Part shown: piece by piece, positions 1-6,000 of the stretch
How the letters are laid out: each line of letters begins with the position of its first letter
Position numbering within the stretch: the stretch's first letter is position 1
NCBI RefSeq assembly: GCF_030384885.1
Contig: NZ_CP128614.1
DNA from: Escherichia coli
Lineage (GTDB): Bacteria > Pseudomonadota > Gammaproteobacteria > Enterobacterales > Enterobacteriaceae
Reading direction: 5' to 3' (one strand)
Length of the DNA: 64,000 bases
Position numbers: made by a program

Positions 1-3000
1 ACCAGGGAAGACAGGTTTTCGTCTTCCCTCTGTGCTGGTTTATCAAATTCGTAATAAGGCATCAGCTTCCAGAACGGAGGATGAGGTTCATTTTCTGGCA
101 GGGGTTGCAGTAATGGTGTATCGGTAGCGTCAATGCCCGGGTTATCAGCATCACTTACGACCGTTTGTTGCTGATCGGAAAGGCTGGATGCTGACGAGGG
201 GGCGATCTCTGCGTCGTTATAACCTTCGCTAACCCGCGCAGATAAACCCTGTGCAAGGCTCTCAATCCGCTCTTTAAGCCGCATAATCTCTTCAGTAAGG
301 GAAGGGTCGTGCGATAGAAGAAAAAGCCGCTCACCTTCTACAGGGTGGCCCAGCTCAGACAGCACTAAGCGGATAATCTTCTCTTCAAGTAAAACATTTT
401 GCGACATCAACCTCTCCCTCTGTTTACGTCGAAGTTAGTGTTTCCGCCATCATTGCTGAATGACAGACCTGTTTCACACCACGGGCAGATCACGTCATCC
501 GGGCCGTCAATGCACAGCAATTTTCCGCATGAGCACAGGGCAAACGCACTGGCATTACCGCAGTGAGGGCAACCCGGTACGCCATGCAGTTCGCTGGTGT
601 TTACCTGCAAACCGGTAGCGGTGGCATCTGACCATGCAAAATAGTCTTCATCGATGGGATAGCATCCGGCAATATTAAAGCTGTTCAGGTTCAGGCTGAA
701 ATCGAGCCCGGAAATCCTTGCTGGTGGCCGTTCATACTTCATCAGATACGGACGACGGGTCTTGCTGCAACGGCCGGTAAGCGTAACGCAGTTTTCGTCG
801 TACGCTTTTACTGGCTCGTCCTTGGCCAGCCGGACTATGTATTCAGTCTGGCTGAGCTCAGGTTGTTTGTCGTCTCCGACGCTGCGGCTGTGCGCCGTAA
901 CCGAGGCTGTGATCCATTTGATGAAGCGGGTAAAGTCCCCTTCCTGAGACTCGGTGAACAGCATGACATTCTCTGTCAGTTGCCGCAGGGTATTCAGGTC
1001 CGCTGACGGCCCCAGGCCAACGGCAATGAGATTCACTTTACTCGCGTAGTGATCCTTCCAGCGCTTCACTTCTGCGGTTGTGTCGTCAGTCGGACGTCCG
1101 TCGGTAAGGAGATACACGACGGGTTTCCAGTCGCCTTTAGCCTCATGAGTGGTTTTTCTGACCTGGGTATCAATTTGTACGGTCAGCTCACGCAATGCGG
1201 CCCCAAGGCTCGTACCGCCGCCAACGGGAAGGCGGGGAGGGTAGAACGAGGCAATTTCGTGAAGAGGTACAATCGTACGGGCTACACCGGCAAATGCGAT
1301 TACCGAAACCCAGGCTGTTTCAAGTGCGTGTGGATCCTTTCTTAAATCTCCGATGATCATTTGCAGACCATCAGTCATTTTTTTCAGGTTTTCACCAATC
1401 ATGGACTCTGAACAGTCCAGGACAAAAAACACGGGAAGGCGTCTCATAATTTTCCTCGTACGGCTGGTACGGCCAGCAGAAAACGTTGCTGTACAGAAAG
1501 GTGCTGCCCGGAAAGCAGCACCTTTCTGTCTGTCAGAGCACCAGCTGGATTTCTGGTGGAGGAGGGGGAAGGGTATCAGTTCCGTTATTGATCCCCGCGC
1601 TTGTGCTGCCGGAAGACACGCTGGCCGATACCCATTTAAAGAAACCTGCAAACGCGGTTGAATCTAGCGTCTCCAAAGACACAACCTTATCGGTGAGCTG
1701 TTTTAAGTGCTCATGGCCTGCTTTAGGACCAACGGCGCAGGCAATGATGGATCCGAATCCCCGGCCGCGAATCGCTTTTACCGCTTCACCGTACGCCAGG
1801 GCATCAGAAGGGGTTCCATCAGTCATCAGGAATACCAGAGGACGCCAGTCTCCTTTTGTATCACCATCTGAGCGACGTACATCCCGTTCAACACACTGCA
1901 TCAGACATTCAAGGGCAGCACCGGTGAACGTCCCGCCTGCGCTTGGCACAACGATGTCAGAAAACTGGAAGTCTTCCAGCGGCGTGAGAGGAATGAACTC
2001 ACGCGCCTCATTGTCATAGGTGATAATGGAGATATGAACGCTTTCGAGGGCGTAGGGATCCTGGCGAAGAGCGCTAAGCATCGCCTGAATTCCAACGTTA
2101 ACGGAATGGATGGACTCACCGCGCATCGAGCCGGATGTGTCGATAACAAGGTAAACAGGCAGGCGGCGCATCACATGTAATTCCTCAGGTGCGAGACAAA
2201 CGAATCTGATTCTGAAGGCTCACCAATTGCCCTGAGTTTCCAGCCTGTAGCCTCGCGTATCAGCTCGGCAAAAACCATGGAGCGCTGGCTGGCGAAGGCG
2301 GGTCCGCCAGAAAGATCGAATCGTGCCATTTCAATATTACGGGCATCTACTGCCCGGATGAAGGCATTCTGAACTTTACCAAAGTGCTGCTGGAGCTTTT
2401 CACCATTGTAGATCTGAACGATGAACACAATTTTCTCGTACTGAGCGTCAAGGGAATTCAGGCGCACAATAATTTGCTCATCGTCACCATCACCGGCTCC
2501 GGTTCGGTTATCGCCCGTCAGCCAGATATTTCCTGACTTATGGCGAAGGCTGTTGAAAAAGATGATATCGCCATTCACAAGCGTTGGTTTACCATTTTCC
2601 ACATTGCCGAGATCGGTCACCTTTCCGGCTGAATTACACAGGAAAGCGATCACATCAAGGTCGTATTCTTCTTCTTTTTTACCAAAGATCCCGCCGAGGA
2701 AACCTTTCTTTTCCTCATTAATATCCCAACCCAGGCCGATAGTAACGGACGAGAGATCGTATTCATTTTTTTTCAGGCTTACGCCCTGGCCTTTGCTCAG
2801 ACTGACAGACATGACATCCCCTTAATTAATAAAATTATAAGACCACGTTTACTTCTGGCGGCGGCGGTGGCAGGTCTTCAAGACCGATCACTTCTTTTTT
2901 GCTGGACTCCACTTTCTGACTGCCTACCGAAATGCTCGCACTGACCCATTTAAAGAAAGCTTTAATCGTCGAACTGTCAGCTGTATCGAGCTGAACCACG

Positions 3001-6000
3001 ATTTCAGTGATTTCTTTGAGGACGCTGGTATCGGCATCATGCCCGGCTGCACATGCCACAACAACGCCGGTTCTGGCCGCTTTAAAGTCATTCAGGCCTT
3101 TACGCCAGTCATCATTCGGACTTCCATCCGTCATCAGGAATACAAGGGGACGCCAGTCACCTTTAGTGTCAGCCGTCGTTTTCTGTACTTCTTTGGCAAT
3201 GGAGCTGGCCGTCAGGGTAAGCGCTTCGCCAAGAGAGGTGGTGCCGCTGGCTGTTAGTGCTGGCATCTGGAAACTCAGGAGGTCTGTCAGGGGGACTGCC
3301 TGTCGGGCTGAAGAATCAAAGGTGATCACTGACACGTAAGCCGTTTCGAGTGCATACGGATCCTGTTTCAGCGTGGTAAGCAGCGTCTGAACGCCATTCT
3401 TAACCGCTTCGATAGGCTCTCCGTGCATAGAGCCGGACGTGTCGAGTAGCAGATATACGGGTAAGCGTCTCAAATGTAATTCCTTCTTAAGAGATCGGAA
3501 GAGGAGAGTAGTTTCAGGAAGAGGCCAGAGTTTGTAGATTTGATAAAACGGCACGACATCTGTCGGGTGGAGATTAAATACTCAGAAGCGGCATTAAAGA
3601 AATAAGTTAACCACCATTGAATTACCGACATGTGAATGGCCTCTTATCAGAGAAAAAAATTCAGACCGTACTGGAATATAAATTTCTGAAAAAAACTCCG
3701 GCAAAAATAAACTTTCTTATGTATGAAAATCATCATACATCACAGATCTGCATGAATGGAGTGTAAATCGCCCAAAGATTGATGTGTAGCACAAGAGGAT
3801 GTCAAGACACCAGGTTTTGTAGGCAGAAAGGCGCTGCTGACATTGCGGGAGGAGAATAGATCAAAACTCCGTCACGCAGATACAGAGGTGAAATATGACA
3901 AAACCGGGGTTTTCACCCCGGTCTGAGATTTAGCGTCAGGACTTTTTAGCGCTGTATTCTTTTATCAGTTCATCAACGGAGTGCAGAGCCAGCTTCTCTA
4001 CCGCTTCACTTCGGGTCGAGCCACTCAGCGCAGCCAGACGGTCAATTTTTCTTAAAATCCGCATGCGTAGCGATAATGACACGGCTGTTTTTTTATCCTT
4101 ATCGAGTACGACCTTCCCTGTGGACTCACCGGTTTTCAGTTCAGCATTCTGTGCGAGCGCTTCATTCATCCGGCGAAGGGTCTTTTTATCCAGCTGGCCC
4201 GGATTAACGAGATGGTAGGAATGACCTGCCTTGCTGTATTTGATCTCCGCAGAATATGACTCGCGTAGCTCTTTGAGTGCCCGGGTTAATGTCGGCTCTG
4301 AGCATTCCAGACTGGTTATAATGTCGGCAGCGGAAACGGGCTTGCCGGTGCCCAGTAAGTTGGCAAGCTTAAAAATCCGGGCCTGTCTGGTATTTAATTG
4401 CATCGTAAGATTTAGCCTGCTTAAAGGGTTAGTGGTTCAATAGGCTGAAAAATGAAGGTACTGCTCATCTTTCGAATAACCGGGTGATCGCCTAACGCTT
4501 CAACCGGATCAATGTGTTCTAAGCCTGCAAAATTTACTGACGACATCTGGCTGCGACTGCATTTGCAGGACAGGATATACTCATCCTCCAGATAGCCGGT
4601 CCGCTTACTGACCCGTTGCGTAAAGCCTGACACAATCACGTTGTCGAACGGTAGCGTATGTAAAACGATACCGACCAGGCGGAACAAGCAGCCATGGACG
4701 TGGCGGGCATAGTTTTCGCGTACGGCTTTTTGCGTCATGGCTTTTTCCGTCAGCTCCGTGCCCCGGGCATTAACGCCGTAAATCTTATCAGGGAAATCTT
4801 CAATCTCAGCTAAATCAACATCCAGCAGGACTGCTGATAGCTCCGGCTTTACTTCAAATGCAACAAGCGTTTCACGCGGCCATTCAGTTTCTGCCAGCAC
4901 ACCCGCCAGGTATGATTCGAAAAACGCGGCGTCTGTCCGGAACTGCTGCCGGGCATCTGCCTGAGCCGTGGCGAGCCGTTTTTCATGTTCTTCAGCCTCA
5001 AACTTCCAGTTTGCATACTGTTCGGCCCAGGCCGTCCGTTGTTGCTGGTACCGGTGCTGTCGAAGGGTATTCTCACGCTCCACATCAATCAGCTCCTGCT
5101 GCCACCGGCGAAGATTTTCGGCGTGGCGCTCAGCTTTAGCTGATTCCGATTCAAACCATTTACCCAGAAAACTAATGCCTTCGCTCTCGGCAGGCTTTTC
5201 CGGCAATGCAAGATAGTCTGGCTTTTCTGGACGCACCGGTGCCGGAACCTGAAAAGGCGACGTTCTGTTATGCAGGTATACTGCTTCCAGCTCTGCCCAG
5301 CTGATGCCTGTTTTAGGATCCGGCGTCAGCTCGTGAATATTACGGATTGCGGTCACCGCTGACATGAGATCAGCGGCTTCCTCCTCAAGCGCCTGTCTGA
5401 GCCCCGGGTCGGTAGCCGTCCGGTTCCCACCTCCGGAACGCGCGGCCCGATCAAGCCGGGTACGGTAACTCAGCCCGGTACCGGGCAAGCCCAGATTGGC
5501 ATAGGTCCCCCGGCTTCCAAAAGAAACGGAAGCACCTCTCGGCCCGACACTCAGGCTCGGTGCACCGTTACTCAGGTTGAGGCGAACACCAGGAATAATG
5601 TTGATCGACTTTCTGAATCTGAACCCCATTATGATTTCCTTAATGATGCTGGGTCACGGTAAGTAATCTGATTCCATCAGCGCTTTGCTCGTTCTGTAAC
5701 CCATAAAAACGAGCTCTGTCCAGAATGCCAGCCGCCCAGCGGCGATGTGTGGCGGGTTCACACATTGCTCCCTGCGACTTAAACACGGCCTGGGTAGAGT
5801 TCAGGATCCGCAGAGCGTCAGAATGCTCACCCTGAGTGACCATCAGCGCGTTTTGAATGACCTCTATCTGACCCGGGTGAATGGCCGTTTTCCCAACAAG
5901 CCCATGTGCCATATCAAGAGCCAGCTCTCTGGCCATTACGGCATGATCGTCAATATGCTCACATACGGGCGCGGTCAGGGCAAAATCACGCGGGCCGAAG

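Follow-up and report, generated by a model that had tools for sequence, protein, structure and literature searches.

The accessory arm of the IncHI2 tellurite-resistance cluster carries a TerY-C vWA protein, a PP2C phosphatase and a kinase

TerY-phosphorylation (TerY-P) triads, attributed to Anantharaman, Iyer & Aravind 2012, consist of a vWA protein, a PP2C phosphatase and a Ser/Thr kinase (STK) with a zinc ribbon, and have been hypothesised to form a metal-sensing phosphorylation switch (PMC11090510; PMC4978471). The title of the 2012 paper also ties the ATP-grasp/PRTase/HAD/StiP/lyase module to a nucleoside-like metabolite. Copies of the triad occur within Type II/III-A CoCoNuT (McrBC-like) loci, and a stand-alone TerY-P anti-phage system has been described, which is reportedly active against T7-like phages (Gao et al. 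2020). The arrangement considered here, a vWA/TerY-C protein followed by PP2C and a kinase, is a module already described in databases and in the literature.

On plasmids, the triad is found in the tellurite-resistance (ter) cluster of the IncHI2 group, whose members rank among the main vehicles of multidrug and colistin resistance. The region concerned has been published under the names terWY1XY2Y3 or terY-CYXYW. Bacteria survive tellurite and oxidative stress better when their ter cluster is more complete, and phage inhibition is reported to map to the ter cluster of R478 (Whelan 1995). The minimal constructs pJS4, pLK18 and pNT3B confer tellurite resistance without terY2, terY3, the phosphatase or the kinase, and the triad is therefore accessory. 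The IncHI2 ter cluster is widespread.

The DNA analysed, here called the window, is a stretch of 64,000 nucleotides from an Escherichia coli contig (NZ_CP128614.1, assembly GCF_030384885.1). Its positions 1-3554 are the accessory arm, terW-Y1-X-Y2-Y3, of the IncHI2 ter cluster. The coding features, in the order in which they lie along the window, are as follows.

1-407, minus strand: first 135 codons of a PP2C-family Ser/Thr phosphatase of 545 aa, identified from the extension in an identical plasmid.
407-1447, minus strand: terY3, encoding 346 aa, a vWA domain plus a Cys-rich tail of 130 aa (Pfam VWA and TerY_C).
410-799, minus strand: TerY_C metal-binding domain of TerY3, residues 217-346 (PF15616), with ten invariant Cys.
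968-1432, minus strand: vWA domain of TerY3, residues 6-160 (Pfam VWA, E 9e-14; pLDDT 80-93).
1533-2171, minus strand: terY2, a 212-aa vWA protein with an intact MIDAS (Pfam VWA); its start overlaps the terX stop.
2171-2812, minus strand: terX, a 213-aa TerD-family protein (PF02342, E 1.3e-52).
2835-3473, minus strand: terY1, a 212-aa vWA protein (Pfam VWA) whose MIDAS (D-x-S-x-S, T, D) is intact and which has a PPPPPE tail.

A 3.8-kb region has 100% DNA identity with many IncHI2 plasmids, and 1,294 plasmid records were matched. With family matches as strong as those above and complete DNA identity to annotated plasmids, chance is not an issue. The window is collinear with plasmid pAMSH1 (99.99% over 37.5 kb), and the collinear region includes terZABCDEF and the ATP-grasp/PRTase/HAD/StiP/lyase genes. 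The terWY1XY2Y3 regions of R478, pKL53-L and pAMSH1 are the same locus as this one and agree with it in gene order and in RefSeq product names; there is no substantive difference beyond the truncation of the phosphatase gene at codon 135 by the window edge. The junction of terY3 and the phosphatase gene (window 1-1447) is found in 337 of 5,426 complete E. coli genomes (about 6%), where RefSeq labels its products as a TerY-C protein and a PP2C phosphatase.

An earlier note on this DNA, made by eye, had described three vWA genes and one TerD-type gene running in the same direction. Pfam agrees, and all four lie on the minus strand. The starts follow RefSeq (PGAP) on the identical plasmid, with ATG at 2171 for terY2 and TTG at 3473 for terY1; the two short TerY proteins are therefore 212 aa long and not 213 aa as the note had it, which is trivial, while its observation that both lack the Cys tail holds. 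Their C-termini instead read LPPPPPE(I/V)xxVL. The MIDAS is intact in all three paralogues of the window, and across 34 homologues of TerY3 its residues D11, S13, S15, T79 and D116 do not vary. The vWA domain of TerY3 matches vWA structures with Foldseek (E ~1e-9), and a PDB sequence search with TerY3 gave only a marginal vWA match (6fpy).

The tail of TerY3 is the Pfam family PF15616, "TerY-C metal binding domain", which it matches with an E value of 3e-53 and 179.7 bits against a cutoff of 28.4, with positions 1-129 of the 129 in the model aligned to residues 217-346. The extra C-terminal region of about 130 aa that had been picked out by eye is thus real, and the CxxC, CxC and CxxC pattern is present as C293-P-H-C296, C305-S-C307 and C321-P-W-C324, together with C312 and, further upstream, C220, C227 and C262. 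None of the ten Cys varies among 34 homologues, which reach down to 57% identity, and H295 is near-invariant. Through these ten residues TerY-C would most likely bind at least two zinc ions and act as a docking surface. An NCBIfam search gave only sub-threshold generic vWA and kinase matches. The tail is not shared by ordinary TerY paralogues and is absent from TerY1 and TerY2; it is widespread and catalogued in triad-linked TerY proteins. The novelty implied for it falls away: the Pfam family exists, the RefSeq product name is already 'TerY-C metal binding domain-containing protein', and the literature has names for the cluster. Nor can the tail or the gene coupling be taken as a new variant, because the same architecture is found in the nearest homologues and in distant representatives. 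The VWA+TerY_C architecture is present in all of the best 120 homologues, and across 1.84 billion representatives TerY_C is placed at residues ~210-350 in proteins of ~340-360 aa, the TerY_C genes forming 296 clusters at 50% identity.

The stop codon of terY3 (TGA, 409-407) overlaps the ATG of the next gene (407-405) as TGATG, just as first reported, and the same overlap occurs at the terX/terY2 junction (2173-2169); the operon is tightly packed. The gene content past the window edge was read from the 100%-identical plasmid pAMSH1. It is very unlikely that the window continues in any other way, because of the collinearity with pAMSH1 noted above. In pAMSH1 the cut gene encodes 545 aa and matches PP2C_2 (E 1.3e-46), with the PP2C domain at residues 284-529, and the gene after it encodes a protein kinase of 499 aa (Pkinase, E 5.9e-10) with a C-terminal zinc ribbon. 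Both the PP2C domain and the kinase gene lie outside the window. The suspicion that the cut gene might encode a kinase or phosphatase that partners the vWA protein is thereby borne out, as is the caution that this could not be decided from the 135 residues visible, which come from the N-terminal part, where the phosphatase is least conserved, and have no Pfam match.

The catalytic and metal-binding residues of both enzymes are intact. The acidic PP2C motifs RDDDF, ADGAG, TDGxSD and HDDR are invariant in the homologues compared, as are the kinase motifs GSGxMK, HSDLSYKN, DxDG (DVDG here) and APE and the zinc-ribbon residues C355, C360, C375 and C378 of the kinase. A Pfam search at E values up to 10 with residues 1-283 of the phosphatase and with the C-terminus of the kinase gave nothing useful; an impression by eye that the kinase tail is FHA-like found no support in it and is not claimed. 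With the kinase, sequence searches of the PDB reached no more of eukaryotic kinases than their catalytic-loop region, and with the phosphatase they gave only a weak Ig/cadherin-like match and a marginal PP2C match.

The gene order is kept across distant Proteobacteria and a much more distant metagenome lineage. The order vWA/TerY_C, PP2C and kinase (499-500 aa) is found in Thiocystis, Iodobacter and Accumulibacter and on a distant metagenome contig, and each of these four loci adjoins TerD, TerC or short vWA genes. In Thiocystis, Iodobacter and Accumulibacter the identity is 57-60%; compared by protein, TerY3 has 57-60% and the kinase, the best conserved of the triad, 62-67%. Another metagenome locus (L010) has two tandem vWA/TerY_C genes and neither PP2C nor kinase within its 8.3-kb contig. 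It is concluded that the association of TerY_C with PP2C and kinase is frequent but not obligatory.

The locus thus has what characterizes a TerY-P triad: a vWA protein with an intact MIDAS, an adjacent PP2C, an adjacent Ser/Thr kinase with a zinc ribbon, and an order that is kept in unrelated taxa. The CoCoNuT-embedded copies have the same three components in one operon, namely a TerY-like vWA protein with a perfect MIDAS, a PP2C and a kinase with a zinc ribbon. They may differ in that the vWA protein here bears TerY-C, and they do differ in their surroundings: the triad here is accompanied by TerD, TerX, short TerY paralogues and Ter biosynthetic genes, with no restriction nucleases or helicases. 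The stand-alone system (Gao et al. 2020) follows the same logic of vWA, phosphatase and kinase.

In archaea, Ser/Thr kinases and a phosphatase control ArnA and ArnB. ArnA/ArnB (a vWA protein and a zinc-finger/FHA protein; PDB 8s05) and TFIIH p44/Ssl1 (vWA and zinc fingers) share with TerY3 the idea of combining vWA with Cys-rich zinc modules, and 8s05 and 7o4k are among the Foldseek matches with the longest alignments.

Taken as a whole, the locus is the accessory arm of the IncHI2 ter cluster, in which terY1-terX-terY2 is followed by a TerY-P triad that probably acts as a phosphorylation switch. The triad consists of TerY3 (a vWA domain with intact MIDAS, plus TerY-C), PP2C and the eukaryote-type Ser/Thr kinase with its C-terminal zinc ribbon. 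From the published model and the anatomy of the proteins, TerY3 may serve as a metal-loaded scaffold or sensor, whose interactions would be switched by reversible Ser/Thr phosphorylation that the kinase writes and PP2C erases. Such a module might tune or trigger the Ter stress response, formed by the TerD/TerC proteins and the neighbouring ATP-grasp/PRTase/HAD/StiP/lyase module, and this response may lie behind the resistance of these plasmids to tellurite and colicins and their inhibition of phages. A search of the accessible literature found no experiment that showed TerY3 phosphorylation, zinc binding by TerY-C or a need for the triad in any Ter phenotype. The triad is a plausible regulatory switch of the ter system and a reasonable target for work at the bench.

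A more specific version of this proposal is tentative and, in our judgement, rather doubtful. TerY-C could have a fold with no solved relative (a three-stranded β unit and then zinc-ribbon-like knuckles) and be the specific element, for docking or for sensing, by which the kinase and PP2C are coupled to the Ter machinery, making the IncHI2 triad a switch that senses infection or stress behind the phage-inhibition and colicin-resistance phenotypes. The general hypothesis has already been published, and the structural and mechanistic details alone would be new.

Of the alternatives, we regard as unlikely the one in which TerY3, PP2C and the kinase are a self-contained anti-phage system of the abortive-infection type that merely lies beside the ter genes, with the kinase sensing infection and phosphorylating host or phage targets. 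It would agree with the reports that TerY-P-like modules protect alone against T7-like phages and that such triads are embedded in CoCoNuT/McrBC restriction loci (PMC11090510), with the phage inhibition ascribed to the R478 cluster (Whelan 1995), and with weak matches of the kinase to the defence kinases mad6, PD-T4-6 and MkoA (PADLOC, E 1e-5 to 1e-2). However, when seven proteins were searched against PADLOC-DB v2 (E ≤0.01; a library that may lack some TerY-P models), TerY1, TerY2, TerY3, TerX and PP2C were unmatched, and with weak generic-kinase matches as the only ones there is no sequence-level support for filing the locus as a catalogued defence system. In five of the six informative loci the TerY_C triad moreover lies among TerD, TerC or short-TerY genes and not among restriction genes. 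The kinase of the stand-alone system is described as an OB-fold fusion (PMC11090510), whereas the kinase here has a zinc ribbon and an unassigned domain; the IncHI2 triad has no assigned phage phenotype. Improbable, finally, is a role of the TerY proteins as structural metal-chelating subunits of a Ter complex (TerD/TerC/TerF), with the kinase and phosphatase working chiefly on substrates elsewhere in the cell: the three vWA paralogues with intact MIDAS and the further, fourth vWA of TerF (15955-17196), the absence of TerY-C from TerY1 and TerY2 and their position not immediately beside the enzymes, and a proposed multi-site metal-binding Ter complex (PMC12054061) would all fit, but the TerY_C paralogue strictly adjoins PP2C and kinase across distant taxa, with overlapping stop and start codons in this plasmid, which argues for a dedicated partnership of the three, and the kinase is better conserved than TerY3, as expected of a co-evolving specific module.

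In and ahead of the operon that runs from terY1 through terX, terY2 and terY3 to the genes of the two enzymes, the following candidate elements were noted.

1493-1529, minus strand: perfect 17-bp stem-loop in the terY2-terY3 gap (-41.2 kcal/mol over a 101-nt stretch, z -4.4).
3675-3704, minus strand: weak sigma-70-like promoter candidate (9/12 matches) for a terY1-X-Y2-Y3-PP2C-kinase operon.
3719-3740, no strand assigned: palindrome ATGTATGATGATTTTCATACAT upstream of terY1, a candidate TerW operator.
3901-3924, minus strand: terminator-like hairpin and T-run just after terW (10-bp stem with 6 GC pairs, T-rich tail), a consensus match only.

The stem-loop is possibly an element of RNA processing, stability or partial termination. 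It was rejected as a conserved regulatory element: the equivalent gaps in three distant loci have no significant folding, and it is lineage-specific. The terminator-like hairpin, judging by its consensus, probably keeps transcription of terW apart from that of the terY operon. The promoter candidate is weak because shuffled sequences contain no fewer such candidates than the region does. A TerW site has been predicted ahead of terY1 in Pectobacterium (PMC7843439), and further palindromes of the ATCAT/ATGAT type are found in the window at 10728-10742 and near 10905-10925.

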